In this document: piece by piece, positions 10,778-56,466 of the stretch
How the letters are laid out: every line of letters begins with the position of its first letter
Numbering within the stretch: the stretch's first letter is position 1
NCBI GenBank assembly: GCA_963746605.1
Contig: CAVVCH010000061.1
Coordinates: 134,441 to 198,440 of the forward strand
Source: an uncultured delta proteobacterium
GTDB taxonomy: Bacteria; Desulfobacterota; RBG-13-43-22
Reading direction: 5' to 3'
Length of the DNA: 64,000 nt
The notes under the pieces: model-generated
What the model saw: the letters and a program-made list of their open reading frames with translations, nothing else
What the model was told of the DNA's origin: nothing
Databases searched by the model: none
Position numbers and translations under genes: made by a program

Positions 10778-10779
10778 TC

Positions 10780-28930: not shown

Positions 28931-29213
28931 TCAAGGTGGAGGTAGAGTCGGCGCCCTGCCTTGACTACCTAAAAATTTTCCTGTGTCTTTAAAAAAGTCG
29001 CTGATATAGGAGATTTTTCCCTCCTCGAACTCCATCAGGGTCACCCCCTCATTCTCGTAGGGTTCCCCGCGTCGGTTTTTCCCTCGATTGCTCCAATGGA
29101 CCGCTCCCCGGTTCCCCTGAACAATGGTCCGGTGAACGGTGAAGACCAACTCCGGGTATTGGCGGAAGAGGATCTGGAGTGAAAAAGTCAGAAATGAGTT
29201 TTTCGGCATTCAC
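28931..29213 (-). pseudogene. SnoaL-like/NTF2-fold protein remnant whose N-terminal segment (GTG start, NAEKLISDFFTPD) is in a different frame from the body; short and likely disrupted
   Basis: C-terminal ...GEPYENEGVTLMEFEEGKISYISDFFKDTG matches the SnoaL-like C-terminus. A frame change near 29170. Starts 5 nt after the ACAD stop. Confidence 0.35.
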
Positions 29214-30513: not shown

Positions 30514-30867
30514 TTATAAAATCGGGACCGGATAGCGGTTCCCGTCCCGGTCATAAAAAATCACTCTCCCGGTTCTTTTCCAGAGGGTTTCGTCCATGAA
30601 ACAATAGAAGGCCTTGATTTCCCCCGGTTCGATGCGCAGGTCTCCCGAGGGCACGAGGTGGTCAAACCTCCGGATCCCTCCGGAAGTTTCCAGGTCGAAA
30701 TGGCTGGGCACAACCAATCGGGGCCAGAGCCCTGGTTGGTAAGATGGATTTCCAGGTTCTGGTCGAACATCTTCAGCCCGCAGCAGGTTTTGAAGCTCAA
30801 GATGTCTTCGGCCGAAGAGTTCATGATGAAACGGATTTCGAGCATGTGGTATTTTTCTCAGCAGCAA
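30514..30867 (-). pseudogene. DUF35 (zinc-ribbon/OB-fold, BbsA/ChsH2-C-like) thiolase-partner protein, N- and C-terminal parts in different frames (ATG 30845 frame, then the 30867..30514 frame)
   Basis: C-terminal LVVPSHFDLETSGGIRRFDHLVPSGDLRIEPGEIKAFY resembles the DUF35 OB-fold. ...SFKTCCGLKMFDQ sits in the other frame. A terminator-like hairpin (30522-30548) and T-rich tract overlap the stop. Confidence 0.45.
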
Positions 30868-30869
30868 TT

Positions 30870-32078
30870 TTACTGTATCTTTCCCACAATGGCGATGCTG
30901 CAGACGTTCATGAAGGGCACCCCGCCCAGATTGTGGGTCAGGCCGAAGCGGGGATTTTCGATTTGCCTTTCTCCGGCCCTTCCATGAAGCTGGAGATACA
31001 TTTCATAGAGCATGCGCAGGCCCGAGGCCCCGATGGGATGGCCGAAGCATTTCAGCCCACCATCCACCTGACAGGGAATCCCTCCCCCGTCCCGATTGTA
31101 GAAACCGTCCAAGGAATCCCGCACGGCCCGGCCCCGTTCCGAAATATGCAGGTCCTCGTAGGTGACCAGTTCGGTGATGGAGAAGCAGTCGTGGAGTTCC
31201 ATCATGCTGATCTCCCGGCGTGGGTCGGTGATCCCGGCTTCCTGATAGGCCCGCCGGCTGCAGACGTCGGTGGTCACAAAGTGGTCCCCGTCCCATTGAT
31301 TAAAGCCCATTTCGGCCCCGCCGCTTAAGGCCAGTTGCAGGGCCTTGACGGTGACAAAATCCTTTCGTCCCATCTCCTTGGCCTTTTCCACGGTGGTGAC
31401 GATGGCGCAGGCCGCTCCGTCGCTCACCCCGCAACAGTCGAACAGCCCCAGAGGATGGGCGATGATCGGGGCGGCCATGATCTGTTCCACGGTCACGGCC
31501 TTACGCAAGTGGGCCTTAGGGTTGAGGACTCCGTTGGCGTGGCTCTTGGCCGAAACCTGGGCCAGCGCGCGTTTGAGTTCCTGGTCCGGAATGCGGTATT
31601 TGGCCGCGTAAGCGCTGGCCAGTTGGGCAAAGGCCCCGGGGGCAGAGATGTTGGGGAACCAGAGCCAGTTCAAAGAGCCCAGCCCGGAACCCGGATTGGG
31701 CAGCCCGCCGTAGCCCGTGTCCTTGAGCTTCTCCACACCCATGGCCAGACAGATATCGTAGGCCCCGGAGGCCACGGCATAGACCGCCCCCCGAAAAGAC
31801 TCGGTTCCGCTGGCACAAAAGTTTTCTGTCCGGGTGGCAGGTATCAAGGGCAGGCGGAGGGTCATGGTAAGGGGAAGGGCGCTTTTGCCCACGTTGATCT
31901 CCTCCATGCAGGTGCCCAGCCAGGCGGCCTCGATATCATCGGGCACGATTCCGGAATCCTCCAGACACTCGGCGAAAGCCTCCACCATCAGTTCTTCGGC
32001 CCCCACATCCCAGCGCTCGCCAAAGCGGGTGCAGCCCATGCCGAGGATGGCGACTTTATCTTTGATACCGGTAGCCAT
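30870..32078 (-). CDS. thiolase, SCP-x/nonspecific lipid-transfer-protein type (acetyl-CoA C-acyltransferase)
   Basis: 402 aa with nucleophile context ENFCASGTESF and C-terminal CFGHPIGASGLRM with catalytic His. No second C-terminal Cys, as in SCP-x-type thiolases. Confidence 0.85.
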   Translation of the reverse strand: MATGIKDKVAILGMGCTRFGERWDVGAEELMVEAFAECLEDSGIVPDDIEAAWLGTCMEEINVGKSALPLTMTLRLPLIPATRTENFCASGTESFRGAVYAVASGAYDICLAMGVEKLKDTGYGGLPNPGSGLGSLNWLWFPNISAPGAFAQLASAYAAKYRIPDQELKRALAQVSAKSHANGVLNPKAHLRKAVTVEQIMAAPIIAHPLGLFDCCGVSDGAACAIVTTVEKAKEMGRKDFVTVKALQLALSGGAEMGFNQWDGDHFVTTDVCSRRAYQEAGITDPRREISMMELHDCFSITELVTYEDLHISERGRAVRDSLDGFYNRDGGGIPCQVDGGLKCFGHPIGASGLRMLYEMYLQLHGRAGERQIENPRFGLTHNLGGVPFMNVCSIAIVGKIQ

Positions 32079-32089: not shown

Positions 32090-33430
32090 TTAGAATTTAA
32101 ACAGCTTTTCTATCAGTTGGGATTTCATCAGATCCCCTTCGATTTTCAGTTTTCCGCTAGTGAAGGCCTGCATGGCCGGCAATTGACCGGTGATCAGCCC
32201 CAGAAAGTCGGCATCGGCCATGTGGATGGTGGTGGTCGGCTTTGCATGAAGCCCCGGGCCTACGGTGCAGGAGGCCTCTTTGATCACCGCCTGCCAATCC
32301 CCGCCCTCGGGCCCGGAGATCCGGAACTGGAAGACCACGTCCACCCCGGCCGCTTTTTCGGCCTGAAAGGCCTCCGGCATCCGCTCGAACACGGACCGAA
32401 CCGTAGGTCCGGAGGGTGAGGATTTGGCCGCCTCCGGCTCCCTTTGCCCGCCGGTCAGCATTTCTCCCAGGGCCGCGGTGGCATTGTAAAATTCCTTTCC
32501 TCCTACGAGGGTGTTGATGGCCGTCCAATTTTGGTGAACCTCTTCCGGGGTAGGGACATTCCCTCCTTCACCGATCAGGATTCCCGGCCCGGAAACGATC
32601 GCCGCCTTGTTGAAATACCCCGCCCCGGCGTTGAAGACCTGGCCGGTCTCGGCGCAGGCGGCGGAGCAGAGATAGATGACCAAGGGGGCCGACGAATTCG
32701 GGTTTAAGTCTTTCAAAGAGATCGGGGGGCAGGATGTCTTCGGTCAGGCGAGTGGCGGCGATAGGGGCCACGGTGTTGACCTTGATGTTGTATTTCTCGC
32801 CCTCCAGTTTCAAGGTGTTCATCAAGCCCACCAACCCCAGTTTGGCTGCCGAATAGTTGGCCTGTCCGAAATTGCCGAACAAACCGGCGGCCGAGGTGGT
32901 CAGGACGATTCGGCCGTATTGCTGTTCCCGCATCTGCCGGAGCGCCGGCCGGGTGACATAATAGGCCCCATCCAGATGGACGGAGAGGACCTGATTCCAA
33001 TCCTCGGAGTCCATCTTGAGCAGGGTCTTGTCCCGGAGGATTCCGGCGTTGTTGATCAGGATATCCACGCGGCCAAAGGTCTCCAGGGCTTTCTCGACAA
33101 TGGCTTCGCCGCCTGCGGGAGTGGATACGGAATCGTAACTGACCACGGCTTCGCCGCCCAGGGCCTTGATTTCTTCAACCACCCTGTCAGCCGGACCGGT
33201 AGAACCAGTGCCGGAACCGTCCCGGGAGCCGCCCAGATCGTTCACCACCACTTTCGCTCCGCGCTTGGCCAAGTCCAGGGCATAGGTCCGACCCAGACCG
33301 GCCCCGGCCCCGGTGACGATCGCCACCTGACCGTCAAATCGGATTTCGGCCTTTTTTTCCTCTGTTGTCGGCGGCTTGACCGGCAGAGGCACGGCTTTCC
33401 AGAAGTAGCCGGAGAACCCGCGGTCCTTAT
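32090..33430 (-). repeat. paralogous SDR+SCP2 module; partner at ~34926..36210 in the adjacent gene (~85-90% amino-acid identity)
   Basis: Near-identical stretches, e.g. RVDILINNAGILRDKTLLKM...GRIVLTTSAAGLFGNFGQANYSAAKLGLVGLMNTLKLEGEKYNIKVN.VAPIAATRLTEDILPPDLF.RLKPE, occur in both proteins. Confidence 0.6.
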
Positions 33431-34826
33431 CGGTGTACCGCTTCCGGAAAGAGAGCCTGACCGGCTGGCCGACCCAGACTTCGGCCAGTTCGCAATCGGT
33501 AAAATCGGCCATGAACCGCCCCCCGTCATCAAATTGGATCATGCCGTAGACTGCCGGCGGGTCGACAGAAACCGTCAACAGGTCTCCGGTAAAGGTCTTG
33601 ATAAAGGCCGATTTTTCGGCAAACTCGTACTCTTCCTGGGTATGGAATTTCCGGCAGTCCGGGTTGACGCAGATATCCATTTTTGGAAACTGAGGGGTGC
33701 CGCAGGCCGTACAGCGGCCGCCCACCAGGCCGAGGATCATCTGCCGTTTCCGATAGAGGACGGTCATGGCCGTCTGCGTGGGGGCCTCGGCCCTGATCCC
33801 CATCTCGGTCTGGATCAGGTCTCGGAACTTGAGGAATTTGGGATATTGGTCGATCGTCTTTTTGTTCTTCAGAGACCCTTCAATCCCCACCCGAGGGGCT
33901 AGATTTAGGATATGCTCGGTCACCCGGAAATACAGCGCGTCGCAGCCCTGTCCGAAACCGGCCAGCAGGATCCGATCTCCAGGCTTGGCCTGCTCCAGGG
34001 CTTGGGTAAACAGGACCAGGGGATGGGCGGCGCCGGTTTCCCCGCAGACCTCGTGGAGGTTGTCCTGAACTTTTTCCGGAGCAGCCCCCAGTTTCTTGGC
34101 GATGTTGCGGTGTTCGGCCTTGAAGAAGCAGGGGAAAACAAGCTTATCCACGTCGTCCATGGTGATGGACAGTTTTTCAGGAGACCGTTTACCGCCGCGG
34201 GGATGATCTTGGCCATATCCTTCATCCCGGACCCAGCGCTCTTCCCACATGTAATCGTATTTGTTTTGGGAGCCGCGGTAGTGATCGATAAAATCCAGAG
34301 AGAGGCTATAAGAACCCAGGAATTCAGCAATTACGCTGCTATTGCCGACCAGGAGTGAGGCGGCCCCGTCGCCGAACCACATCTCATAAAAATAGGCGGC
34401 CTTGGTCTCCCGCTTGTCGGCCGCGGTGACCAGGATGCTTTGGGGGACGCCTTCCCGAAGGGAGTTCAAGGCGGTGATCAGCGCGCTGGTGCCGGAACGA
34501 AGGGAGGCGGTAACGTCCTGGGTCAGCAGGTCATCCCGAAGGTTCAGGGCCGTTTTGACAATAGCGGCGTTGAGGCGGTCGGCAAAGGGCAGCGTGGTGG
34601 AGCACAGGTAGAGGGCCTCCATCGCCGATTTATCCGCTCCCTTCAGGCAGTCCTGCGAGGCGGCAACGGCCATGGTCAGGCTGTCTTCATCCCAGTTGCA
34701 GAAAGAACGCTCACCCTGGGCGACCATGACGATGGCCGGGGCAAACCAGCCCATTTCCTGAAAGATGCTCATGCGGTTTAGACGGAGCCGGGGAAGGTAG
34801 CCGCCGTAGGATACGATGCCGATCAT
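32090..34826 (-). pseudogene. four-domain fusion (HMG-CoA-synthase-like + DUF35 + short-chain dehydrogenase + SCP2 sterol-carrier), interrupted by a +1 frameshift at the G5 run 32683-32687 (ORFs 32568..34826 and 32090..32716)
   Basis: N-terminal MIGIVSYGGYLPRLRL is the HMGCS start. CTACGT...NPDCRKF...VWVGQPVRLSFRK is DUF35. TGAGAGLG...YSAAK is SDR. The C-terminus continues in the other frame as PLVIYLCSAACAETG...GKLKIEGDLMKSQLIEKLFKF (SCP2). Deleting one G restores EFVGPLVIYLC, matching the paralog RLKPEYVTPLVLYLC. Confidence 0.75.
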
Positions 34827-34925: not shown

Positions 34926-37032
34926 TCAGAACTTAAAAAGTTTTTCTATGAGCTGGGATTTCATCAGGTCGCCTTCAATTTTCAGTTTGCCCGAGGTGTA
35001 GGCCTGCATGGCCGGCAGTTTTCCGGCCATCAAATCCAGGAAATCTTCGATCCGACATTTTAATGAGGGTCGTCGGTTTTTCGTGGAGCCCCGGGGTGGT
35101 AGTACAGGTCGCGTCTTTGATGGCGGTAAACCAATCTCCCCCGCCCGCTCCGGAAATCCGGAATTGAAAAACCACGTCCACCCCGGCGGCCTTGTCGGCC
35201 TGAAAGGCCCGGGGCATCTCATCAAAAACCGACCGAACGGTGGCCCCGGGGGCCTCGACCGGCGCCGCCTCGGTTGGGGAGGGGGGGCCGGTCAATAGGA
35301 CGCCCAAGGCCTCGGTGGCATTGTAAAATTCCCGGGCCCCGGTCATCCGGAGAATGTCCGGCAGGCGGGCGGAAAGGCTCTCGGGAGAAGGGATCTGGTG
35401 CCCGTCGCTGAGCATTACCCCGGGACCGGAAAGTACGGCGGCCCGATTGAAAAAACCCATCCCGGCATTATAGACCGCGCCGCTCACCGGGCATTGTTCG
35501 GCGCAGAGGTAGAGGACCAGCGGGGTTACGTATTCGGGTTTGAGCCGGGCGAAAAGATCGGGGGGCAGGATGTCCTCGGTCAGACGGGTGGCGGCGATGG
35601 GGGCCACGGCGTTGACCTTGATGTTGTATTTTTCGCCCTCCAGTTTCAACGTGTTCATCAAGCCCACTAACCCCAGCTTGGCCGCCGAATAGTTGGCCTG
35701 CCCGAAATTGCCGAACAGACCGGCCGCCGAGGTGGTCAGGACAATTCTTCCGTACCCCTGTTCCCTCATCCTTTGGAAGGCTGCCCGGGTTACGTAGAAG
35801 GCCCCGTCCAGATGAACGGCCCGGACCTGTTCCCAATCCGCTTTCTCCATTTTAAGCAGGGTCTTGTCGCGCAGGATGCCGGCATTATTGATCAGGATAT
35901 CCACGCGGCCAAAGGCTTCGACGGCCCGCCGGGTGATGGCTTCCCCGCCTTCCGGGGTCGATACGGAATCGTAGCTGGCCACGGCCTCACCGCCCAGGGC
36001 CATAATTTCCGCAACCACCCGGTCCGCCGGACCGGCCGATCCGGTCCCGGATCCATCCCGAGCGCCGCCCAGGTCATTGACCACCACCCGTGCGCCTCGC
36101 CGGGCCAGTTCCAGGGCGTAGGCCCGGCCTAACCCGGCCCCGGCGCCGGTGACGATGGCCACCCGGCCGTCCAGGCGAATCTCCATCTTTGGGGTCTCCC
36201 CATATTCGAAGATTCCCTGGTCAATGACCACCTCGCCTGTCTCGGCGTTGATGACCCGCCAGAGGGCCTTCCCTTCGTCCACCCGCCAGATCTGGGTTTT
36301 GATGGCGTTCCCGGGATAAAGCGGGCTGCGGAAACGATTGGCCATCCGTCGTACCTTCTCCGGGGCGCCCGGGACCAGTTGCCGGATCAAGGCCCGGGAA
36401 GCATAGCCGTGGGTGCAAAGGCCGTGCATGATGGGTCGGGTAAAACCGGCCGTCTTGGCAAATTCCAAATCCACGTGCAGGGGGAAGATGTCCCCGGAAA
36501 GACGGTAAATCAGCGGCTGATCGACCGGGGGGGTAGCCGGCACCTCAAAATCCGGAGGTCGTTCCGGGAACGAAATGGCATTCTTAGGGGCATCTTCCCC
36601 GCCAAAGCCCCCGTCCAAACGTGCCAAGACGGTAACGATGCTGGTGAAAAGTTTTCGGCCGCCTTCATTCCGGGTGTCAAACTCGGCCACGATCAGCGCT
36701 CCCTTGTCGGGGCCTTTGTCGTAATAATGGGTGATGGCCCCCTCGGTTATCAGTTTTCCCTCCGAAGGGATGGGCTGGTGAAAGATCAACTCCTGCCCGG
36801 CGTGAAGAATTCCCGCCAGGTTGACATTGCTGATGGAGGCCAACTCCGGCATGAAATCGTACAGCGTCACAATGCCAAAGCTCGGCAAGACCCTGAGGTC
36901 CTTTTCGTAACAGTAGTCTAGATCGGAAAAACCCGCACCCACGCCCAGGGCATAGAGGACCGTGTCCTTCCAGGTATAGTCCTTGGAAAAGGGGCCGATC
37001 TTTTTTCCAATGCTGTCCAAGTTAAGGGCCAT
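34926..37032 (-). pseudogene. MFE-2-like fusion (2x MaoC hot-dog hydratase + SDR + SCP2), C-terminal SCP2 end displaced by a 1-nt insertion near 35058 (ORFs 34975..37032 and 34926..35225)
   Basis: N-terminal YTWKDTVLYALGVGA is the hydratase-2 N-domain, then TGAGAGLG...YSAAK (SDR). The tail ...TLIKMSD then shifts to EDFLDLMAGKLPAMQAYTSGKLKIEGDLMKSQLIEKLFKF, identical in sequence to the paralog's C-terminus. Confidence 0.75.
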
Positions 37033-37077: not shown

Positions 37078-37725
37078 TTAGGGGCTGTCGGCCCGGTTTT
37101 CTCCCCCTCTGTCGAAGGCCGGGATCAAGATATATTTCAAGGTCTCTTTGGCCAGCGCCATGTATTCCGGACGTTCGATCTTAAGGAGCGACCGAAAAAA
37201 GGTTTCCCCGGAAATAAAATTATGAATGGCATTCATGATGACCAGGACCTGCATTTTAACGGAAACGGAGACGCTTTCCTTGTCCCGGCTGAGACCCATG
37301 GAGCGGGCGATATCGGAAATGAATTCCGGAACCCTGAAATCCAGGCTGGTTTCAGGGCGGGTCTTTCCGAAATATCGAAAAAGGACCAGGTTGGATATTT
37401 CCGGGTGTTGGAAGAGAAAGGCCACAATCCGGTCGATGGAAATGTCCATTCTCTGGGCCAGGGGCCGCCCGTGGATTATTTTTTCCACGGCCACCAGTTG
37501 CTGGCGCAAGTCCTCGTTGATATCCAGGACCACGGCCTCGTAGAGGTCCCCTTTTTCGCCCCAATGGTAATACAGCGTGGAAATGTCAATACCCACCCGT
37601 TGGGCGATCATGCGGGTGGTCGTTCCATGATAGCCGTATTCACCAAAAAGCTGCCGGGCTATCTTGAGGATCCGGGCCTTCATGGATTCCGGATCCCGCC
37701 GGGCTTTTTCCAAAGGGGTGCTCAC
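37078..37725 (-). CDS. TetR/AcrR-family transcriptional regulator
   Basis: N-terminal HTH ARILKIARQLFGEYGYHGTTTRMIAQRVGIDISTLYYHW. It is the first gene of the minus-strand cluster. Confidence 0.8.
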   Translation of the reverse strand: MSTPLEKARRDPESMKARILKIARQLFGEYGYHGTTTRMIAQRVGIDISTLYYHWGEKGDLYEAVVLDINEDLRQQLVAVEKIIHGRPLAQRMDISIDRIVAFLFQHPEISNLVLFRYFGKTRPETSLDFRVPEFISDIARSMGLSRDKESVSVSVKMQVLVIMNAIHNFISGETFFRSLLKIERPEYMALAKETLKYILIPAFDRGGENRADSP

Positions 37726-42990: not shown

Positions 42991-43056
42991 TAAGGTATGA
43001 ATCTTTCAACTCTTGATCAATTTAACTAACGTAACATCCAGATTGAAAATTTAACG

Positions 43057-44272
43057 AAGGGGGACGAGACTGATGGGCAAGAAGAAATTTGAACGGACGA
43101 AGCCACATGTGAATGTGGGGACGATCGGGCATATTGATCATGGGAAGACGACCTTGACGGCGGCGATCACGCTCTGTTTATCGAAGAGCGGATTTGCGAA
43201 TTTCATACCCTTTGACGAGATCGACAAGGCGCCGGAAGAGAAGGAGCGGGGGATCACGATCGCGACGGCCCACGTGGAATACGAGACCAAGAAGCGGCAT
43301 TATGCGCACGTGGACTGTCCGGGGCACGCGGACTATATCAAGAACATGATCACCGGAGCGGCTCAGATGGACGGAGCGATTCTGGTGGTTGGAGCGGATG
43401 ACGGGCCGATGCCGCAGACGCGGGAGCATATATTGCTGGGACGTCAGGTCGGAGTGCCGTATATAGTAGTTTTTTTAAACAAGGTGGACATGGTCGACGA
43501 TCCGGAGCTGATCGAGCTGGTGGAACTGGAGCTGCGGGAGCTGTTGAGCAAGTATGAGTATCCCGGGGACGATATACCGATCATCAAGGGATCGGCGCTG
43601 AAGGCCTTGGAGTGCGGCTGCGGGAAAGGGGACTGTCCTGCCTGCCAGCCGATATTGGAGCTGATGGACGCGATCGACAACTATGTACCGGAGCCGGTGC
43701 GGGATATAGAGAAGCCGTTTTTGATGCCGGTGGAGGACGTCTTCAGTATTTCGGGCCGGGGGACGGTCGTCACGGGCCGGGTGGAACGGGGGATGATCAA
43801 GGTTGGTGAGGAAGTGGAGATCGTGGGGATTCGCCCGACGATCAAGACGATCTGCACCGGGGTGGAGATGTTCCGGAAGACCCTGGACCAGGGCCAGGCG
43901 GGAGACAACGTGGGGTTGCTGCTGCGGGGGACCAAGCGGGACGATGTGGAGCGGGGCCAGGTCGTGGCCAAGACGGGATCGATCACGCCGCACACCAAGT
44001 TCAAGGCGGAATCGTATATTCTGTCGAAAGAGGAAGGCGGGCGGCACACGCCGTTTTTCAACGGCTATCGGCCGCAGTTTTATTTTCGGACGACGGACGT
44101 GACCGGGGTGGTGACCTTGCCGGAAGGGGTGGAGATGGTGATGCCGGGCGACAACGTGTCGATGACGGTGTCCTTGATCATGCCCATCGCCATGGAGAAG
44201 GAACTGCGGTTTGCCATTCGGGAGGGGGGCCGGACCGTAGGCGCCGGCGTGATCTCCGAAATCTTGGAATAA
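43057..44272 (+). repeat. ~1.2-kb near-identical direct repeat (tuf copy 1); partner at 59708..60923
   Basis: Identity begins 16 nt upstream of the ATG (AAGGGGGACGAGACTG) and ends at the stop codon. At least three synonymous substitutions. Confidence 0.9.
43073..44272 (+). CDS. tuf: elongation factor Tu (copy 1, tufB-like position after the tRNA operon)
   Basis: [28 protein letters not shown]-domain motifs. 399 aa. Confidence 0.97.
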
Positions 44273-44320
44273 CAGCCAGGACGAGAAGGAAACCTCGCCT
44301 GTCGGGATCAGGGAACGAAT

Positions 44321-44470
44321 ATGCGCGATATTATCAATTTGTCTTGTACGACCTGTAAACAGAAAAATTATACCACCACCAAAAACAAGCGGAAGACCCC
44401 GGATAAACTGGAATTTAAGAAATATTGCCGCTTCTGTCAGACCCACACGGTCCACAAGGAAACCAAATAG
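44321..44470 (+). CDS. rpmG: 50S ribosomal protein L33
   Basis: [49 protein letters not shown], 49 aa, classic L33. Confidence 0.85.
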
Positions 44471-44502
44471 CGGAACGTCGTTATTCGCCGGAGTTAATCC
44501 GC

Positions 44503-44579
44503 AGGCCAGTAGCTCCAACGGTTAGAGCACCGGACTCCAAATCCGGGTGTTGGGGGTTCGAATCCCTCCTGGCCTGCCA
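44503..44579 (+). tRNA. tRNA-Trp (anticodon CCA)
   Basis: Anticodon stem CCGGA/TCCGG with loop CTCCAAA, GGTTCGAATCC, CCA end. Usual position before secE. Confidence 0.85.
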
Positions 44580-44612
44580 AATTCATTCAAAGGGACTGGG
44601 AACCCGGGGGAG

Positions 44613-44987
44613 ATGAAGAAACTTAAACCGAAAAAAAAGGGTGGGGCGGGCGACATTGAAAAGACGGTCGAGGAAAAGCCATCCAAAGACCCCCAATCCG
44701 CTTTGGCTCCTAAGGAAACCAAAACCAGCCTAAAAAAAACGTCCTCGGACGAAGGCGTTTCCGAGGGACTGGTTGCCGAGTGGACAAAAAAACTGAAATT
44801 CGTGGGCCTGACCAAGACTTTTTTCAGGGAAGTTCGGATGGAACTGAAAAAGGTCACCTGGCCGACCCGCAAAGAGACCTTGGCCGCCACCGTCATGGTC
44901 ATTATTCTTTCGGTGGTTGTAGCCTTTTTTTTGGGGATCTTGGATGTGGCCTTAGCCAAATTGGTTGGTTCCATTATGGGTCGCTGA
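44613..44987 (+). CDS. secE: preprotein translocase subunit SecE (with a long Lys/Glu-rich N-terminal extension)
   Basis: C-terminal FFREVRMELKKVTWPTRKETLAATVMVIILSVVVAFFLGILD is the conserved SecE TM region. Position before nusG. Confidence 0.8.
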   Translation: MKKLKPKKKGGAGDIEKTVEEKPSKDPQSALAPKETKTSLKKTSSDEGVSEGLVAEWTKKLKFVGLTKTFFREVRMELKKVTWPTRKETLAATVMVIILSVVVAFFLGILDVALAKLVGSIMGR

Positions 44988-45059
44988 GCGGCTTCCTTCT
45001 GGGGAGCGGCGGCGGAAGGATTTATCGATTTACCCAAGAAGGGATAACGGGGTTGGGCC

Positions 45060-45590
45060 ATGGCGCATAAATGGTATATCGTACACACCTATTCGGGATT
45101 TGAGCACAAGGTCAAGCTGGCCTTGGATGAGCAGATAAAGTCCCAGGGCCTGGAAGGTCTTTTTTCGCAAGTCTTGGTCCCTACCGAACAAGTTGTGGAA
45201 CTGGTCAAAGGCGAAAGGAAGACATCCTCCCGCAAGTTTTATCCGGGATACGTGCTGATTAAGATGGAGTTGAATGACGATACCTGGCACCTGGTTAAAG
45301 ATACCCCCAAGGTGACCGGGTTTATCGGGGAAAAGAACAAGCCGGCGCCGATCCCGGACGAGGAAGCTGAGAAGGTCATCGAACAAATGGCCGAAGGGGC
45401 CATTCGTCCGAAGCCCAAATTTTACTTTGAGGAAGGGGATGAAGTTCAGGTGATCGACGGCCCTTTCTCCAACTTTAACGGGGTGGTGGATGAAGTCAAA
45501 CCGGAAAAGAGCAAGCTTAAAGTGCTGATTAGTATTTTTGGCCGCTCAACGCCGGTGGAATTGGATTTTGTCCAGGTGGCCAAGTCATAG
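45060..45590 (+). CDS. nusG: transcription termination/antitermination factor NusG
   Basis: WYIVHTYSGFEHKV (NGN domain) and C-terminal KOW (FEEGDEVQVIDGPFSNFNGVV). Confidence 0.9.
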   Translation: MAHKWYIVHTYSGFEHKVKLALDEQIKSQGLEGLFSQVLVPTEQVVELVKGERKTSSRKFYPGYVLIKMELNDDTWHLVKDTPKVTGFIGEKNKPAPIPDEEAEKVIEQMAEGAIRPKPKFYFEEGDEVQVIDGPFSNFNGVVDEVKPEKSKLKVLISIFGRSTPVELDFVQVAKS

Positions 45591-45735
45591 CCGGAGCCTG
45601 ATAAAGGCCCACGGGTTGATCGGCCGGCGACAAGTCATCAGCCGATTCCCGGAAAGTTTGGAAGGTCCCCTCGGCAATTCGAAGGATTGTTTTTCGAAGG
45701 GGAAAGGCTTTTAATGAAGAAGGAGAATCGTTGAG

Positions 45736-46158
45736 ATGGCTAAAAAAATCATTGCCTATATAAAACTGCAGGTGCCGGCGGGACAGGCCAATCCTTCACC
45801 CCCTATCGGACCGGCGCTCGGCCAGCACGGCGTCAATATCATGGAATTCTGCAAAGCCTTCAATGCCCGCACGCAGGGTCAGGAAGGGATGATCATCCCC
45901 GTGGTGCTGACCGTTTTTGCCGATCGTTCCTTCACGTTTATAACCAAGACTCCGCCGGCCTCGGTGCTTTTGAAGAAGGCGGCCCAGATTGCTAAAGGAT
46001 CCAGTGTGCCGAATCGGGATAAGGTGGGACGGGTTTCACCGTCCCAGGTGGAGGAGATCGCCAAGTTAAAAATGCCGGATTTAAATGCCGCCAGTTTAGA
46101 CGCTGCGATTAAGATCATCGAAGGCACGGCGCGCAGTATGGGCATTGACATCGGCTGA
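45736..46158 (+). CDS. rplK: 50S ribosomal protein L11
   Basis: [44 protein letters not shown]. Confidence 0.95.
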
Positions 46159-46192
46159 GTTAACTATCAGGAAAAGAGGTAGGAAATAAGCT

Positions 46193-46897
46193 ATGCCAAA
46201 GAATGGGAAGAACTATAATCAGGCTCGTGAGCAAGTGGATCGAACCAAGCGGTATCCCTTGGAAGAAGGCGTTCAGTTGGCCGTTAAATCCTCCTATGTC
46301 AAATTTGACGAGACGGTGGATATGGCGGTCCGACTGGGGGTGGACCCCCGGCATGCCGATCAGATGGTTCGGGGGGCCGTTGTCCTCCCCAACGGTACGG
46401 GAAAGACCACCCGGGTGCTGGTGTTTGCCAAAGGGGAAAAGGAAAAGGAAGCTCTGGATTCAGGCGCCGATGTAGTGGGTTCGGAAGAATTGATTGAGAA
46501 GATCAAAGGCGGTTGGCTGGAATTCGATAAGGCCGTCGCCACCCCCGACCTGATGGGCCAAGTGGGCAAAATCGGAAAGATTTTAGGGCCTCGGGGGCTG
46601 ATGCCCAACGCCAAGACCGGCACCGTAACCTTTGACGTGGCCAAGGCCATTCGTGAGATCAAGGCCGGCAAGATCGAATTCCGCGTAGAAAAAAACGGCA
46701 TCGTCCATGCCCCGATGGGACGGGTTTCCTTCGGGCTGGATAAACTGATCCCCAATATCTTATCTTTTTTCGATACAATCCTGCGTCTTAAACCATCCAG
46801 CGCCAAAGGAACTTATCTTAAAAGCATAACTATTTCGACTACCATGGGTCCAGGGATCAAAATCGACCCTTCTTTTATCAAAGAAATCGGTAAATAG
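46193..46897 (+). CDS. rplA: 50S ribosomal protein L1
   Basis: ...[20 protein letters not shown]...GPRGLMPN... Confidence 0.95.
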
Positions 46898-47190
46898 ACA
46901 GCCAGGTCACCTTTTTGAGCCCCTCAAGGAATTTTTTCTGCGAGGCGCTGATGCAAAAAGGGACTCTCGGGCCTTCCCGGGAGGCCCGGCGAACCGATCG
47001 ATTTGTTCCGCGGATTATTAATGATCAACCAAAACCAACCGTTCCGCGAGTTAAAGACCGTAGGTGCCTGCCAGGCTTTAAATGATTTTTTTCAGCCTAC
47101 CGAGACTCGGAAATTTCCGACTGAACTCAGCTGTCGGCCCCACGGATTTGACCTCCGAAGAACGAATGGTAAGAAAGGAGGGATGCATTC
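46898..47190 (+). promoter_or_regulatory. rplJ-rplL leader region (probable L10(L12)4 autoregulatory leader)
   Basis: ~290-nt non-coding gap before rplJ, as conserved in bacteria. Structure not verified. Confidence 0.3.
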
Positions 47191-47712
47191 TTGAAAAAGA
47201 CGGATAAGGAAAAGATCGTGGCCGATCTTCACCAGCGTCTGGCCCGCTCTCAGGCCGTTTTTGTTACCGATTTTACAGGGTTGAATGTCGAATCGATCAA
47301 CAAGTTACGCCGGGATCTGAAACAGCGGGGAGACGAGTACCAGGTTGTGAAGAAGACCTTGCTGCGGCGGGCCTCTCAGGAGACTCCGGTGGCGGCGATC
47401 GAGGACATTCTGGTAGGTCCCTGCGGGATTACCATCAGTTATGGGGATCCGGTGGCTTCGGCCAAACTGCTGGCGGACTTCGCCAAGGACCGGGAGAAAT
47501 TTGCTTTTAAAGGCGGGATTCTCCAGGGAAGGTCGATTTCGGCAGAGGATGTGGGACAATTGGCCAAGATGCCGTCCCGGGAGATTCTCCTGGGGCAGTT
47601 GTTGTCCGCCTTGGTGGCCGTGCCGACCGGATTGGTTTCGACCCTGTCCGCTATCATTCAGAAATTTTTGTTAACCTTAAAAGCCGTGGAAGACCAAAAA
47701 GCCCAGGCTTAA
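47191..47712 (+). CDS. rplJ: 50S ribosomal protein L10 (TTG start)
   Basis: KEKIVADLHQRLARSQAVFVTDFTGLNVESINKLRRDL. Confidence 0.9.
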   Translation: MKKTDKEKIVADLHQRLARSQAVFVTDFTGLNVESINKLRRDLKQRGDEYQVVKKTLLRRASQETPVAAIEDILVGPCGITISYGDPVASAKLLADFAKDREKFAFKGGILQGRSISAEDVGQLAKMPSREILLGQLLSALVAVPTGLVSTLSAIIQKFLLTLKAVEDQKAQA

Positions 47713-47739
47713 GAATCATTATGAGGAGGAAACCTAACG

Positions 47740-48129
47740 ATGGCTGAGAAAATCACTAAAGAAGAGGTAATCGAGTTCATTTCCAATATGACCGTTTTGG
47801 AGCTTTCGGAATTGGTCAAGGAGTTAGAGGATAAATTCGGCGTTAAGGCCTCGGCCCCGGTTATGGCCATGGCGGGCCCGATGCCGGGGGCCGGAGAAGC
47901 GGCGGTTCAGGAAGAGCAAACCGAGTTCGCCGTTATCCTGACCGGCGTAGGAGACAAAAAGATTCAAGTGATCAAAGAAGTCCGGGCCATTACCAACTTA
48001 GGACTGAAGGAGGCCAAGGACGCCGTGGAAACCCTGCCCAGTACCATTAAAGAAGGCATCCCGAAAGAGGAAGCGGAAAATGTGAAAAAGCAGCTGGAAG
48101 GCGCTGGGGCTACGGTAGAGATTAAGTAG
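47740..48129 (+). CDS. rplL: 50S ribosomal protein L7/L12
   Basis: [35 protein letters not shown]...EIK C-terminus. Confidence 0.95.
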
Positions 48130-48192
48130 TCCGGCGGCCGATGAGACAATCGGCCCCGCTGTAATGAAAGCTTGTCACGTAAAGGAGACGGG

Positions 48193-51100
48193 ATGAAAGA
48201 TCGTTCTTTCCTCAACGTTCGTTTTCGAAAGAATTTCGGACACATCGAAAAAATTATCGACATTCCCAATTTGATGGATATGCAGAAGCAATCCTACGAA
48301 CGGTTTCTGCAATACCATGGGAATCCCGATAAACGGGAAAATACCGGCCTGCAGGGGGTCTTTAAAAGTGTTTTTCCTATTCGGGATTTTAGCGGATTAT
48401 CCTCTCTGGAGTTTGTTCGATACAGTTTCGGTGAGGTAAAATACGATGAGGCGGAATGCCTGCAAAGAGGCATGACTTATGACGTGCCGATGAAGATCAC
48501 CGTCCGCCTCATCGTCAACGATCTGGACAAGGATACCGGGAGCCAGACGATTCGGGATATCAAGGAGCAGGACATTTATTTCGGGACGATACCCTTGATG
48601 ACCGATAAGGGTACGTTCATCATCAACGGTACCGAGCGGGTGGTGGTCAGTCAATTGCATCGGTCGCCGGGGGTGTTCTTTGCCCATGACAAGGGGAAGA
48701 CCCACAGCAGCGGGCGTCTTTTGTATTCGGCGCGGGTCATTCCCTTGCGCGGTTCCTGGATTGATCTGGAGTTTGATCCGAAAAATATCCTTTTTGTGCG
48801 CATTGACCGTCGGAGAAAATTTCCGGTAACCATCCTGTTGAAGGCACTCGGGTATTCCAATCAGGAATTACTGAACTATTTTTACGAGCGGGAGCGGATC
48901 AACCTGGAAGACGGGAAGATCCGCCGGGAAGTCAACCCGGATTTCCTTTTGGGCAAAAAGGCTCCTCGGGACATTGTGAATCCCCTGACGGGAGAAGTGA
49001 TCGTCCGCAAAAACCGCAAGATCAATAAACGAATTATCAAATCGCTGCAGGACGCGGAAATTCGATCGCTTCCGGCCAGGGCCGAGGACATCGAAGGGTA
49101 TTTTCTGGCGCAGGAAGTGGTGGATCCCGAAACCGGAGAGGTCCTGATCGAAAGCAACGAGGAATTGACCCGGGAAAAGCTGAACCTCCTGCTGCAGAAA
49201 AAAACGCCTTTTGTGGATTTGTTGTTCATCGACGGGGTCAATGTCAGTTCTTCCCTGCGGGATACCTTGATTATGGACAAGGTGCCGGGCAGCAACGAGG
49301 CCATCCTGGAGATTTACAAGAAATTGCGCCCCAGCAACCCGCCGACTCTGGAAGTGGCCACCAACTTTTTTTACAACCTTTTTTTCAATCCGGACAATTA
49401 CGATCTCTCCTCGGTGGGTCGGCTCAAGCTGAATCATCGCTTGGGTCTGGAGGTTCCTCTGGAGGAGCGGACCCTGCGCAAAGAGGATATCCTGCTGACG
49501 GTGAAGAAGCTGATCGAGCTGAAGGATACCAACGGTGCCGTGGATGATATCGATCATTTGGGCAACCGTCGGGTCCGGGCGGTGGGCGAGCTTCTGGAAA
49601 ACCAGTATCGTATCGGTCTGGTGCGGATGGAACGAGCGATCAAGGAGCGCATGACGCTGCAGGAGATCGAGACCCTGATGCCCCATGACCTGATCAATCC
49701 CAAACCGGTGGCCGCCGTGGTGAAGGAATTTTTCGGGACCAGCCAGCTTTCCCAATTCATGGATCAGACCAATCCGCTCTCCGAGATTACCCACAAAAGG
49801 CGGTTGAGCGCCTTGGGTCCGGGAGGCCTTACCCGGGAGCGGGCCGGGTTTGAGGTCCGGGACGTGCATCCCACCCATTACGGGCGGATCTGTCCGATTG
49901 AAACGCCGGAAGGCCCCAATATCGGCCTCATTGTTTCCTTGAGTACCTATGCCCGGGTGAATGAATTCGGTTTTATCGAGACCCCTTACCGGGTGGTCCG
50001 GGAGGGCACGGCTACCCCGGAAGTGAAATTTTTGAGCGCTTTGGATGAGCAAGGGTTCAATATCGCCCAGGCCAATATCCCCTTGGACCGGGCCGGTCGT
50101 CTGGTCGACCCCATGGTTTCAGCCAGAAAGGACGGGGAATTTGTGATGGTCAATAGGGAGGAAGAATCCATTGACCTGATGGACGTTTCTCCCAACCAGT
50201 TGGTCAGCGTGGCCGCCTCTCTAATTCCTTTCCTAGAAAATGATGACGCCAACCGGGCCTTGATGGGTTCCAACATGCAGCGGCAGGCCGTGCCCTTACT
50301 CTCCTGCCGCGCTCCGATCATCGGCACCGGGATTGAAGAGGTGGTGGCCCGGGACTCCGGAGTAACCGTGGTGGCTAAAAATAACGGCGTGGTGGAAGAC
50401 GTGGACGCCGACCGGATCGTGGTCCGGTATATCACGGAGGAAACGAAAGACCGTCCTTTGGGGGCGGGGGTGGAACTGTATAAATTGAATAAGTTTCAGC
50501 GGTCCAACCAGAATACCTGCTTCAGCCAAAAACCGATCGTTCGCAAAGGGGACCCGATTCAAAAAGGACAGGTCATCGCCGACGGCCCCTCCACCGAAAA
50601 AGGGGAACTGGCCTTGGGACGCAATGTGCTGGTGGCCTTCATGTCCTGGGGCGGTTATAATTTCGAAGACTCCATCCTGGTGGGGGAGCATCTGGTTAAA
50701 GACGATGTCTTCACCTCGATCCATATTGAAGAATTCGAGCTGGTGGCCCGGGATACCAAACTGGGCCGGGAAGAAATTACCCGGGATATACCCAACTTGG
50801 GCGATGAATCCTTAAAAAATCTGGATGAAAGCGGCATCATTCGCATCGGAGCGGAAGTGAAGGCCGGCGACATTTTAGTCGGTAAGGTTACCCCGAAAGG
50901 GGAGACCCAGCTGTCGCCGGAGGAGAAACTACTCCGAGCGATCTTCGGGGAAAAGGCCGGAGACGTGAAGGACTCTTCCCTCCGGGTTCCGCCGGGAATC
51001 GAGGGCGTCGTTATCGAGGCCAAGGTCTTTTCCCGTAAAGGGGTGGAGCGGGATGCCCGGTCCAAGGCCATTGAGGAGGAAGAAGTAGCCCGGATCATGA

Positions 51101-52338
51101 AGGATCAAAACGACGAGATCCAGATTCTTCACCGAGAGGCCCTACAGCGCTTGAAGGCCCTGGTGGTGGGAAAACTATCGAGCAATACCATCAAAGAAGA
51201 TCGCGGCGACAAGGTCCTGATCGCCCGGGGAGAAAAGATTTCGCTGGAAAAATTGACCAAACTTCCGGTCAAAAAATGGAAAGATTTGGCCGTTTCCAAA
51301 GGGAAGGACCTGAAGGAAGAGTTGGAAGGGATTATCCGGGATTATCAAGAAAAGGTGGCCATGATCAAAGGGACCTTTGAGGGAAAGGTAGCCAAGTTGA
51401 AAAAAGGGGATGAACTGCCCCCCGGAGTGGTCAAGATGGTCAAAATCTACCTGGCCGTTAAGCGCAAGCTGGCCGTGGGAGATAAGATGGCCGGACGGCA
51501 CGGGAACAAGGGCGTGGTTTCCCGGATTCTTCCCAGGGAGGACATGCCTTATTTTGCCGACGGCACCTCGGTGGATATTGTCCTCAATCCTTTGGGAGTT
51601 CCCTCGCGCATGAATGTGGGGCAGGTGTTGGAGACCCACTTGGGCTGGGCCTCCCGAGAGTTGGGCAAGAAGGTTGCCGATTTGGTCGACGACTTCCAGC
51701 GAACCGCCGAAGCCCGGAAGCTGCTCAAGAAAATCTACGAATCGAAAAAAATAGAAGGCTATTTCGAGGCCATTCCGGATGAGGGGCTGCCCCTCTTAGG
51801 CGATCAGTTTCGGGAGGGTATTCACATGGCCACGCCGGTCTTCGATGGGGCCGATGAGGCGGATATCCAGCGACTGCTGAAACTGGCCGGGATTTCTGAA
51901 ACCGGAAAGGCCGTCCTCTTCGACGGCCGGACCGGCGAAGCTTTTGACCGCCCGGTGACCGTGGGGGTCATGTATATGCTCAAGCTGCATCATTTGGTGG
52001 ATGACAAGATCCATGCCCGGTCCATCGGCCCGTATTCGCTGGTGACCCAGCAACCCCTGGGCGGAAAGGCGCAATTCGGCGGGCAGCGTTTGGGAGAGAT
52101 GGAAGTCTGGGCCATGGAGGCTTACGGAGCCGCTTATACACTTCAGGAATTCCTGACCGTCAAATCCGACGATGTGGCCGGCCGGACTCGCATGTACGAG
52201 AAAATCGTCAAGGGGGACAACGTGCTGGAAGCCGGTCTGCCGGAATCCTTCAACGTGTTGATGAAAGAATTGCAGAGTCTGGGATTGAATATCGAGCTCT
52301 TGGAGGGTGGGTCGCCGGACTCGTCGCCGAACGCCTAA
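48193..52338 (+). CDS. rpoB: DNA-directed RNA polymerase beta subunit
   Basis: ATG 48193 after [31 protein letters not shown] at the N-terminus, and ...NMQRQAVPL..., ...[15 protein letters not shown]... invariant motifs. Confidence 0.95.
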
Positions 52339-52368
52339 GCCCGAAGCCTTTTTTAGAGGAGTGTTGCC

Positions 52369-55300: not shown

Positions 55301-56466
55301 AACGGGAGCGCTATCCCCTGATTTACGGAACCCAGTTGAAAATTAAGGAAGGACACCCGGTGAAGGCCGGGGACTTGCTGGCCAATTGGGACCCCTTCAC
55401 CATTCCCATTATTACCGCGGTTTCCGGGAAGGTAAAATTTGGTGATGTCAACGAAGGGATGACCATGGAAGAGCGGCGGGATGTGGTGACCGGAAAATCC
55501 AGCAAAGTGATCGTGGAATACCGGGATGCGGAAATGCGTCCTCGGATTTCCATTAAGGATGAGCAGGGCCGCACAGCCAAGTTGCCCCAGTCCAACGCCT
55601 GGGCCCGGTATTTGCTGCCATTGGGGGCCATTATCCTGGTCACCGAGGGGGACGCTATTTTGGCCGGCGACGTCATAGCCAAGATCCCTCGGGAAACCAC
55701 CAAGACCAAAGACATTACCGGCGGTCTGCCGCGGGTGGCCGAGTTATTTGAAGTCCGCAAACCCAAAGAACACGCCGTGATCACCGAAATCGACGGCATG
55801 GTGACTTTTGGAAAGCACAGCAAGGGAAAACGAAAGGTAGTGGTCACCCCGGAGGTGGGCGAGCCCCGGGAGTACCTCATTCCCAAAGGGAAGCACGTGA
55901 GCGTCCAGGAGGGGGACGTCATCCTGGCCGGCGAAGCCCTGATGGACGGGTCGGCCAACCCCCACGACATCCTGAGTGTCAGCGGGATCAAGGAGTTAGC
56001 CAAATACCTGGTCAATGAAGTCCAGGAAGTCTACCGCCTCCAGGGGGTGAAAATCAACGACAAGCACATCGAGGTCATCGTCCGGCAGATGCTCCGCAAA
56101 GTTAAGATCAAGGATCCCGGAGACAGCGATTACTTGGTGGGTGATCAGGTGGAGTGGCAGCTTTTCACTCAGAAGAACCAGGAAATCCTGGCCCAGGGAG
56201 GAAGACCGGCCCAGGCCGAGCCGCTCCTCCAGGGGATTACCAAGGCTTCCCTCTCCACCGACAGTTTCATTTCGGCGGCTTCCTTCCAGGAGACGACCAA
56301 GGTCCTGACTGATGCCAGCATCGGCGGGGAAAAAGATTATTTACGGGGATTAAAAGAAAACGTCATTCTGGGGCGGATCATTCCGGCCGGTACCGGGATG
56401 GCCGTGTATCGGAATATTATTTTGCCGCAACCGGGCAAAGGTGCGGTGGAACGGATTGAACCGTAA
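52369..56466 (+). CDS. rpoC: DNA-directed RNA polymerase beta' subunit (GTG start)
   Basis: Zinc-binding [23 protein letters not shown] and [14 protein letters not shown] catalytic Mg-binding motif. 1365 aa. Confidence 0.95.

Follow-up and report, generated by a model that had tools for sequence, protein, structure and literature searches.

A catalytically dead HMG-CoA-synthase-like domain fused to DUF35, dehydrogenase and SCP2 domains in an uncultured Desulfobacterota: a candidate scaffold for the neighbouring thiolase

Background

Three solved enzyme complexes combine a subunit of the 3-hydroxy-3-methylglutaryl-coenzyme A (HMG-CoA) synthase type with a DUF35 protein and an ACAT-type thiolase, and in these complexes DUF35 bridges the other two components while the coenzyme A (CoA) chamber lies at the interface between the synthase-type subunit and the thiolase (PMC6392133, PMC12960953). 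The HMG-CoA synthase (HMGCS) subunit is active in the archaeal complex, but in PhlACB and MucABC it is dead and nevertheless indispensable for a soluble and active thiolase subunit. PhlC is active only together with PhlA and PhlB, and PhlA is without the catalytic Cys and Glu, having Gly115 and Cys83 there (PMC6392133); MucB alone is insoluble and inactive, and the shared CoA chamber is kept in MucABC (PMC12960953). The present work concerns a gene which combines a dead domain of this kind with further enzyme domains in one chain. It lies at 32090-34826, on the minus strand, of a 64,000-nucleotide stretch of DNA from an uncultured Desulfobacterota (contig CAVVCH010000061.1; the whole stretch is called the window below), and it encodes an HMGCS-like domain, a DUF35 module, a short-chain dehydrogenase/reductase (SDR) and an SCP2 domain directly upstream of a thiolase gene. 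We consider it moderately probable that the protein is a pseudoenzyme scaffold which docks the thiolase and tethers a dehydrogenase to it for R-specific beta-oxidation.

The locus resembles PhlA/PhlB/PhlC (the Pseudomonas enzyme PpATase; 5M3K, 9SKH) and MucA/MucC/MucB (the Streptococcus enzyme SmaATase; 9VBO) in that an HMGCS-like part without the catalytic tetrad, a DUF35 part and an ACAT-like partner are encoded together. In the Phl and Muc systems, however, these are three separate proteins, whereas in the window the HMGCS-like and DUF35 parts form one chain that is fused on to SDR and SCP2; and the Phl and Muc thiolase-like subunit, from which the HDxF motif is gone, serves antibiotic biosynthesis as a Friedel-Crafts C-acylating enzyme, whereas the window thiolase keeps HDCF and lies in a beta-oxidation context. 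The three components are likewise homologous to those of the archaeal thiolase/HMGCS/DUF35 complex 6ESQ (E values of 8e-26 for HMGCS, 3.5e-11 for DUF35 and 1.3e-50 for the thiolase), but the archaeal HMGCS is active and pulls the condensation for mevalonate, while its counterpart here is dead and the coupled enzyme would be the tethered dehydrogenase.

Other described systems share parts of this arrangement. In Sulfolobus acidocaldarius the ketothiolase (KT) Saci_1121 and the DUF35 protein Saci_1120 bind an (R)-specific SDR reductase, Saci_1104, and a MaoC dehydratase, Saci_1085 (bioRxiv 10.1101/2024.07.05.601840). This fatty-acid synthase complex, in which DUF35 mediates the assembly of a thiolase, an (R)-specific SDR and a MaoC hot-dog protein, holds the same three activities as the operon described here, but it is non-covalent, has no HMGCS-like subunit, depends on NADPH and is biosynthetic, whereas in the window the SDR is fused, is of the NAD type and lies beside an acyl-CoA dehydrogenase (ACAD) gene. 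Peroxisomal MFE-2 (HSD17B4; Fox2 in yeast) and SCPx/SCP2-thiolase are matched in the SDR and SCP2 domains, the adjacent hydratase 2, the thiolase related to SCP2-thiolase and the R-specific chemistry. They differ from the locus in that its domains are partitioned into a hydratase-SDR-SCP2 and a scaffold-SDR-SCP2 protein, its thiolase carries no SCP2, and MFE-2 has no HMGCS-like or DUF35 part. DUF35 is also the obligatory partner of an SCP2-thiolase-like enzyme in the BbsAB benzoylsuccinyl-CoA thiolase and in the ChsH2(DUF35)-Ltp2 steroid aldolase, but these have no HMGCS-like component, and the fusion partner of DUF35 in ChsH2 is a hydratase instead of an SDR.

An earlier note on this DNA, made from its sequence alone, had taken the four-domain fusion to be undescribed, which holds only in part. 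Non-catalytic HMGCS-like subunits of thiolase/DUF35 complexes were already known in PhlA (PMC6392133) and MucA (PMC12960953), a paper of 2010 lists DUF35 fused with domains of the thiolase-superfamily, SDR, SCP2 and hot-dog kinds (PMC2954200), and at least 120 clusters of the four-domain protein are present in the databases. A dedicated or experimental description was not found: the literature search gave nothing specific on the four-domain architecture in Desulfobacterota or Syntrophus, and no description of, or experiment on, the family of HMGCS-like-DUF35 fusions in the role of partner to a thiolase in catabolism.

Results

Loss of the catalytic tetrad from the HMGCS-like domain

The protein starts MIGIVSYGGYLPRLRL. 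Pfam and Protein Data Bank (PDB) matches give the order of its domains as HMGCS-like, DUF35, SDR and SCP2, as the earlier note had proposed. The gene and its domains are as follows, in amino acids (aa) of the protein that results when one extra base is removed from the open reading frame (ORF).

32090-34826, minus strand: four-domain fusion gene, 911 aa after repair, split into ORFs as it stands
33807-34826, minus strand: HMGCS-like domain of the thiolase fold, aa 1-340, catalytically dead (HMMER, MAFFT, AlphaFold2, Foldseek)
33378-33764, minus strand: DUF35 module, aa 355-483, with a zinc ribbon (Cys372, Cys375, Cys386, Cys391) and then an OB fold
32486-33341, minus strand: MFE-2/HSD17B4-type (3R)-hydroxyacyl-CoA dehydrogenase (SDR), aa ~496-780 (Pfam adh_short at 500-689)
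32096-32365, minus strand: SCP2 lipid-binding domain, C-terminal, aa 821-910 (Pfam SCP2, E 2.5e-17)

The homology of the N-terminal domain to HMGCS is evident in both sequence and predicted structure. Pfam matches it with ACP_syn_III and ACP_syn_III_C, which are thiolase-fold families of the FabH/HMGCS type, and its PDB sequence matches are headed by PhlA (9SKH, E 2.7e-38; 5M3K, 2.5e-33), followed by archaeal HMGCS (6ESQ_I, 7.9e-26) and MucA (9VBO). An AlphaFold2 model of residues 1-483, built with 120 diverse relatives, has a predicted local distance difference test score (pLDDT) of 96.4 and a predicted TM-score (pTM) of 0.95. Since this confidence is so high, the HMGCS-like and DUF35 parts are, in the model, one rigid unit. 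The best Foldseek matches are PhlA (0.88), archaeal HMGCS 6ESQ_I (target TM-score 0.91, root-mean-square deviation 2.3 A) and MucA (0.85).

A Glu-Cys-His-Asn tetrad is the defining feature of HMG-CoA synthases (PMC12960953), and the definitions of the tetrad and its motifs were taken here from that paper and from PMC6392133. The earlier note had observed that the nucleophilic Cys appeared to be missing, at ASLRSGT, and had proposed an alignment or an AlphaFold model as a check on the absence of the catalytic residues. The alignment with HMMER places Leu109 (dvtasLRSGT) at the nucleophile Cys114 (dlefaCKAGT) of 6ESQ_I, MAFFT agrees, and the loss proves to be wider than had been seen, extending in both alignments to the entire tetrad within a predicted HMGCS fold.

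34596-34598, minus strand: Glu replaced by Thr77 (HMGCS GSESHPY, window CSTTLPF)
34500-34502, minus strand: Cys replaced by Leu109 (HMGCS FACKAGT, window ASLRSGT)
34131-34133, minus strand: His replaced by Pro232 (HMGCS VFHQPN, window VFPCFF)
34038-34040, minus strand: Asn replaced by Glu263 (HMGCS GNTYS, window GETGA)

The replacements are a property of the family and not of this one sequence. All 120 of 120 full-length homologues have Thr, Pro and Glu at the first, third and fourth positions, and at the second position 110 have Leu and the rest Q, P, M, V or I. Neither Glu nor Cys nor His occurs at its tetrad position in any of 123 diverse two-domain relatives (clusters of at most 50% identity), which consist of the HMGCS-like and DUF35 parts without the others. 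The domain has the HMGCS fold of the thiolase superfamily and lacks both the catalytic tetrad and the equivalog scores that go with EC 2.3.3.10.

The dead part is under purifying selection and is not decaying. Its ratio of nonsynonymous to synonymous substitution rates (dN/dS) is 0.10-0.15, compared with 0.04-0.10 for the thiolase, and its mean identity of 74.6% exceeds the 70.8% of the active SDR, the dead domain having the higher value in 53 of 55 loci. The positions that are at least 90% conserved family-wide (R15, D46-E47-D48, P80, D104, E148, R184, R197, G262, G265, G292 and G294) are, in the alignment with 6ESQ_I, those common to genuine HMGCS minus the tetrad, and a conservation pattern of this kind is the signature of a pseudoenzyme retained for its surfaces.

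DUF35, dehydrogenase and SCP2 domains

The second domain has the four-Cys rubredoxin-like ribbon and OB fold of DUF35. Pfam calls zf-ChsH2 at 367-392 and OB_ChsH2_C at 421-461, residues 364-481 match the archaeal DUF35 chain 6ESQ_E (E 3.5e-11) and PhlB (5M3K_B), residues 368-480 are beta-rich in the AlphaFold2 model, and the four Cys do not vary among 113 homologues.

The SDR matches the dehydrogenases of MFE-2, namely those of Candida (2ET6, E 7e-131), rat (1GZ6, 9e-95) and human (HSD17B4 1ZBQ, 1e-93) together with 3OML (6e-86), and the alignments include the C-terminal extension, reaching query residue ~287-306. Across the same 113 homologues, conservation is complete or at least 90% for the motifs TGAGAGLG and NNAG, for Ser645, Tyr658 and Lys662, and for Asp530, which comes after strand beta2. 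An Asp after this strand is an NAD-type signature in SDR enzymes, and Asp530 suggests NAD as the cofactor; the SDR of the fusion is predicted to be an active, NAD-type (3R)-hydroxyacyl-CoA dehydrogenase. The C-terminal domain matches human SCP2 (2C0L_B, E 2e-10) and the SCP2-like domain of MFE-2 (1IKT, E 2e-9). The fusion protein is not a whole MFE-2: it has no hot-dog domain, and hydratase 2 is encoded by the upstream gene.

The operon

The order of the genes is essentially invariant among the related loci: a TetR regulator, MaoC(hydratase 2)-SDR-SCP2, the fusion, the thiolase, a small ORF and ACAD.

37078-37725, minus strand: TetR-family regulator at the head of the operon (Pfam, related loci)
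34926-37032, minus strand: gene for hydratase 2 (double hot-dog MaoC), SDR and SCP2, with its true stop at 34926-34928 and not at 34975
30870-32078, minus strand: thiolase of the archaeal-ACAT/SCP2-thiolase type, starting 12 nucleotides past the stop of the fusion gene
30514-30846, minus strand: small conserved gene of ~100-115 aa between thiolase and ACAD, present in many loci (for example L002 11287-11628 and L003 7491-7835)
29219-30361, minus strand: ACAD (Pfam, NCBIfam, related loci)

The thiolase comes immediately after the fusion, on the same strand, in all 61 of the 61 loci whose sequence is long enough to show it, and its mean identity is 83%. The earlier note had regarded this neighbour as a real thiolase, which is borne out by its PDB matches (7YVY, E 2.5e-54; 6ESQ_A, 1.3e-50; BbsB 7PXP, 1e-39), by its score of 672 bits against a cutoff of 403 in NCBIfam NF004810, and by the catalytic loops, which are intact in alignment with 7YVY and 6ESQ_A: FCASG (CxS), HDCF and GHP (GHPIGASG). 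The enzyme is accordingly named here as a predicted, catalytically competent thiolase. It is the sole thiolase in the window, and the DUF35 module of the fusion is the sole DUF35.

The upstream hydratase-2/SDR/SCP2 protein resembles an MFE-2 with permuted domain order. Its SDR module (35330-36190) and that of the fusion (32486-33341) were compared across 62 genomes: the identity of the pair within a genome averages 76.6%, compared with 71-73% for the same module between genomes, and no alignment column separates the two module types. This likeness suggests concerted evolution by gene conversion or else a shared constraint, such as heterodimerisation of the kind found in the A/B pair of yeast MFE-2.

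The small gene has the consensus MLEIR.IMNS..EDIL.FKTCCGLKMFDQNLEI ... PGE..AFYC.MDE.LW ... FYD..GN.YPV and no match to a Pfam family. The possibility that it is a stand-alone DUF35 was rejected, as it matches neither Pfam nor a DUF35 hidden Markov model built from the family.

Distribution, variants and unfused relatives

Intact full-length homologues of the four-domain protein form at least 120 database clusters of 907-913 aa, with 64-89% identity at 100% coverage, and are labelled 'SDR family NAD(P)-dependent oxidoreductase' or '3-hydroxy-3-methylglutaryl CoA synthase/NAD(P)-dependent dehydrogenase'. A scan with the N-terminal 483 aa, taking one genome per species, finds relatives in 332 species, and the best 80 of the 332 are nearly all labelled as metagenome-assembled genomes (MAGs) of Desulfobacterota or 'Deltaproteobacteria' (Desulfomonilaceae, Syntrophales, Desulfatiglandales, Desulfobacteraceae).

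The architecture varies around the scaffold. There are proteins with scaffold and SCP2 but no SDR (L059 7001-8803, 601 aa), with scaffold and two SCP2 domains (P0121, 722 aa), with scaffold and SDR but no SCP2 (L071, L077, P0131), and with all four domains and a second SCP2 (P0068, P0105 and P0118; 1036-1040 aa). Because these variants lack SDR or SCP2 or carry a second SCP2, the scaffold is the constant core and SDR and SCP2 are the add-ons.

A HMMER search with residues 1-483 returns 2,923 representative clusters at E <= 1e-3 and 545 at E <= 1e-30, and most of the 2,923 are proteins of 465-490 aa in which an HMGCS-like and a DUF35 part are the only two domains. This two-domain family resembles the N-terminal half of the fusion in being a single chain without the tetrad, with the thiolase next to it and SDR, hydratase and ACAD genes alongside, and differs in having no C-terminal SDR and SCP2, these being encoded by genes of their own. 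The thiolase directly follows the two-domain gene in five of seven sampled members, in clusters with ACAD, SDR, hydratase and often TetR. In Sphingomonas paeninsulae, SDR, MaoC dehydratase, an 'OB-fold domain-containing protein' (D3Y57_RS02230) and thiolase are four consecutive genes, and the thiolase is 61% identical to that of the window. In Novosphingobium sp. ES2-1, ACAD, SDR, the two-domain protein (IM701_RS20355) and thiolase stand in an oestrogen-degradation cluster of the edc type, the two-domain gene lying on plasmid p3 (L091 7992-9395). The order SDR, HMGCS-like-DUF35, thiolase is found in L085 as well, and L087 and L088 have related orders of the beta-oxidation type. Two-domain members, Azoarcus KH32C AZKH_RS24540 among them, are 31-48% identical over 99% of the 483 aa.

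A study of N. tardaugens reports the same gene order as in the Novosphingobium ES2-1 cluster and does not place the 'HMG-CoA synthase' in the oestrogen pathway (PMC7793797). Its EGO55_13555, in the oestrogen edc cluster, is assigned to the two-domain family by synteny. If the scaffold proposal is true, then it would resolve the question, printed in that study, of the role of this edc-cluster protein in oestrogen degradation, and it would give a function, that of obligatory non-catalytic thiolase partner, to a very large set of bacterial proteins, the 2,923 clusters and the relatives in 332 species given above, which at present bear such labels as 'HMG-CoA synthase', 'OB-fold domain-containing protein' and 'SDR family oxidoreductase'.

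The annotation of the family has a practical side. The two-domain protein P0200 (470 aa) passes the NCBIfam HMGCS cutoff, with 248.7 bits against 244, without having the Glu, Cys or His, and the name 'hydroxymethylglutaryl-CoA synthase' which it and its relatives bear in databases is a systematic misannotation. Members that lie above the cutoff in this way without catalytic residues can create false calls of the mevalonate pathway.

Proposed function and its alternatives

In the mechanism proposed, the N-terminal half of the protein (HMGCS fold and DUF35) would be a pseudoenzyme scaffold, which lacks all four catalytic residues but retains those that genuine HMGCS employs for its fold and interfaces. 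The scaffold would bind the dimeric, archaeal-type product of the thiolase gene next to it and would probably complete the CoA-binding chamber of that thiolase. The C-terminal half, on short flexible linkers, would consist of the NAD-type (3R)-hydroxyacyl-CoA dehydrogenase followed by SCP2, and these linker-attached domains would deliver and oxidise (3R)-hydroxyacyl-CoA beside the thiolase. With dehydrogenase and thiolase in one complex, 3-ketoacyl-CoA would be consumed where it is made, and the upstream hydratase-2/SDR/SCP2 protein and the downstream ACAD, under TetR regulation, would complete an R-specific, 'peroxisome-like' beta-oxidation cycle. A module that holds thiolase and dehydrogenase together, as the earlier note had imagined, fits the unbroken adjacency to the thiolase, the lone DUF35, the purifying selection, the unfused operons and the precedents. 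The parts of the proposal differ in strength. Docking of the thiolase is quite likely, because the components are homologous to PhlA/PhlB, MucA/MucC and archaeal HMGCS/DUF35; the catabolic direction is reasonably likely, being favoured because of the NAD-type Asp530, the ACAD and the TetR regulator; and true substrate channelling is speculative and somewhat doubtful. The peroxisomal MFE-2/SCPx system handles long, branched and steroid-side-chain acyl-CoAs, and the natural substrate here is, speculatively, probably a long or bulky/branched acyl-CoA.

The SDR fusion can be regarded as a Rosetta stone, in that it predicts one complex of dehydrogenase and thiolase in the R-specific, peroxisome-like beta-oxidation of uncultured Desulfobacterota, and it bears on the oxidation of lipids by anaerobes near the thermodynamic limit. 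A bolder and tentative version, on the unlikely side, is a beta-oxidation 'metabolon' built on a dead enzyme, in which pseudo-HMGCS/DUF35 and thiolase would share a CoA chamber like that of the archaeal thiolase/HMGCS complex, the tethered dehydrogenase would pass 3-ketoacyl-CoA directly to the thiolase, the whole might be joined to the hydratase protein by SDR heterodimers, and thiolysis would pull the unfavourable NAD-dependent oxidation, the fusion having been fixed in energy-limited sulfate reducers and syntrophs. If this is true, then the same logic in unfused form would account for the 'HMG-CoA synthase' orphans that aerobes carry in their catabolic gene clusters, those for oestrogen included.

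Several observations weigh against the scaffold proposal. Cys233, His258, Glu263 and His268, which are invariant in the four-domain subfamily, could support new chemistry. The two-domain gene has no adjacent thiolase in L084 (4084-7425) and L089 (3033-6398), two of the seven sampled members, where it follows a gene for a ~590-aa CoA-transferase, so the thiolase partnership may not be universal. The proteins of L084 and L089 may have another partner. The full-length AlphaFold2 model (P0001 with 113 homologues of 69-84% identity to it) has a pLDDT of 77.7, a pTM of 0.52 and misfolded residues 1-46; it contains no confident contact between SDR or SCP2 and the scaffold and is unusable for inter-domain packing. 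Finally, as it is found in the window, the gene is frameshifted. L084 and L089 belong to a subfamily of Methylomirabilota type, and in L084 a phage integrase gene follows.

The same complex could in principle run in reverse, with an uphill Claisen condensation by the thiolase pulled by the tethered ketoreductase, and so serve acyl-CoA elongation independent of acyl carrier protein, or (R)-3-hydroxyacyl-CoA formation, in the manner of archaeal fatty-acid synthase or PhaA/PhaB. The archaeal complex of KT/DUF35, (R)-specific SDR and MaoC dehydratase is biosynthetic, the archaeal thiolase/HMGCS/DUF35 complex serves to pull condensation, the stereochemistry is of the R type here too (MFE-2 SDR and hydratase 2), and organisms near thermodynamic equilibrium often operate pathways reversibly. 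This direction is nonetheless unlikely: the operon has an ACAD instead of an enoyl-CoA reductase, its TetR regulator is typical of fatty-acid catabolic operons, Asp530 is of the NAD type whereas the archaeal reductase is strictly NADPH-dependent, and catabolism is the role of MFE-2 and SCPx, the nearest homologues that have been characterised. A gain of new catalytic or ligand-processing activity by the HMGCS-like domain, as an acyl-CoA hydrolase, a transferase or a steroid- or lipid-specific step, is improbable. It would account for the presence of Cys233, Glu238, His258, Glu263 and His268, all invariant in the four-domain subfamily, beside the former active site and for the very high conservation, and the N. 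tardaugens authors proposed 'other activities' for the homologous edc-cluster protein; but none of these residues is in the set at least 90% conserved in the broad two-domain family, which has the same genomic context, that family has no conserved Cys or His nucleophile, and in PhlACB only residues of PhlC catalyse, as structure and mutagenesis show (PMC6392133). That the domain is a genuine HMG-CoA synthase, catalysing the first committed step of the mevalonate pathway as some automatic annotations have it, is scarcely credible. The top NCBIfam match is indeed an HMGCS model, and the name given to homologues by JGI includes this enzyme. However, the function is refuted by the missing Glu, Cys and His, all four catalytic residues being gone; the scores fall short of both curated equivalog cutoffs (177.8 bits against 244 for NF003274, and 124.3 against 353 for TIGR00748); and the surroundings are those of beta-oxidation, not of mevalonate.

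Reading frame and the origin of its breaks

The earlier note had taken 32090-34826 as a single ORF, without mention of the minus strand. The coding region is upheld, but a frameshift near 32684 had been read through: in the ORF list the window version consists of two overlapping minus-strand ORFs, one running from 34826 to 32568 (752 aa, from an ATG) and the other from 32716 to 32090 (208 aa). DNA alignment with six related loci (L001-L004, L013 and L044) locates the cause in one extra base, where the window has GTCGGCCCCCTTGGTC and the relatives GTC-GCCCCCCTGGTC; the paralogous upstream gene reads ...KPEYVTPLVLYLC... across the point at which the frame of the fusion gene breaks. Removal of the base yields the 911-aa, four-domain protein. 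A further defect lies at residues 205-218 (GQDHPRGGKRSPEK), which are unlike every homologue and are out of frame between two compensating indels ~40 nucleotides apart, the alternative frame AKIIPAAVNGLLK agreeing with the AKIIPAAVNGLFQK of the family. Neither defect affects the catalytic positions.

32681-32686: site of the single-base insertion, with the frame broken between KPEFV and APLVIYLC (alignment to L001-L004, L013, L044)
34160-34215, minus strand: out-of-frame stretch of ~14 codons (aa 205-218), where the other frame, AKIIPAAVNGLLK, fits the family

The window is ordinary chromosomal DNA of an organism that carries dsrAB, a sulfate or sulfite reducer, and breaks of this kind occur elsewhere in it. 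The upstream MaoC-SDR-SCP2 gene is frameshifted near 35049 (...IKMSD, then EDFLDLMAGKLPAMQAYTSGKLKIEGDLMKSQLIEKLFKF), with an extra base in a GATC context; the small conserved ORF between thiolase and ACAD is frameshifted near 30715; and dsrA is split by a frameshift near 4815, after GTYTPP, into ORFs at 4370-4831 and 4833-5681 on the plus strand, with dsrB (5695-6837) intact. Such breaks could mean that in this genome the gene is decaying as a pseudogene, perhaps along with the whole operon, and yields nothing functional. The concentration of defects in the operon, with one uncompensated frameshift and two compensating indels in the fusion gene and frameshifts in the MaoC gene and the small ORF, speaks for this, as does the intactness of rpoB, rpoC, S7, EF-G and EF-Tu in the window, which means that the indels are unevenly spread. 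However, dsrA is essential to a sulfate reducer and is frameshifted as well, so the indels are window-wide; they sit in runs of G/C and A; and between the window and its nearest relative dN/dS is 0.15 over the N-terminal 483 codons, with zero in-frame stops. Frame intactness was compared across 66 related loci long enough to contain the complete gene: most had intact ORFs of 906-922 codons, and frameshift-like truncations were concentrated in the loci of 'MFD...bin' MAGs (5 of 18), the group which holds the window's closest relatives L001 and L002; in the other 48 loci the only short ORFs were three domain-architecture variants and one of 892 codons. Operon decay as the cause of the clustered frameshifts was largely rejected on the frameshift in dsrA and the low dN/dS, and a pseudogene is correspondingly improbable. 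Since frameshifts affect not only the fusion gene but two further genes of its operon and also dsrA, the breaks in the window are most likely sequencing or assembly errors.

Other observations in the window

Downstream of ACAD, a SnoaL-like ORF (28931-29209, minus strand) matches only the C-terminal half of its Pfam model (46-101 of 102); what may be its N-terminal part is read in a different frame, and there may be a further frameshift near 29170. The cluster of ribosomal-protein, rpoB-rpoC, S7, EF-G and EF-Tu genes within 43000-63000 appears intact by ORF size and order. Downstream of dsrAB, at 9749-12417 on the plus strand, are genes with a nitrate-reductase-gamma-like domain and Fe-S dicluster domains, which we presume may be DsrMK-like.

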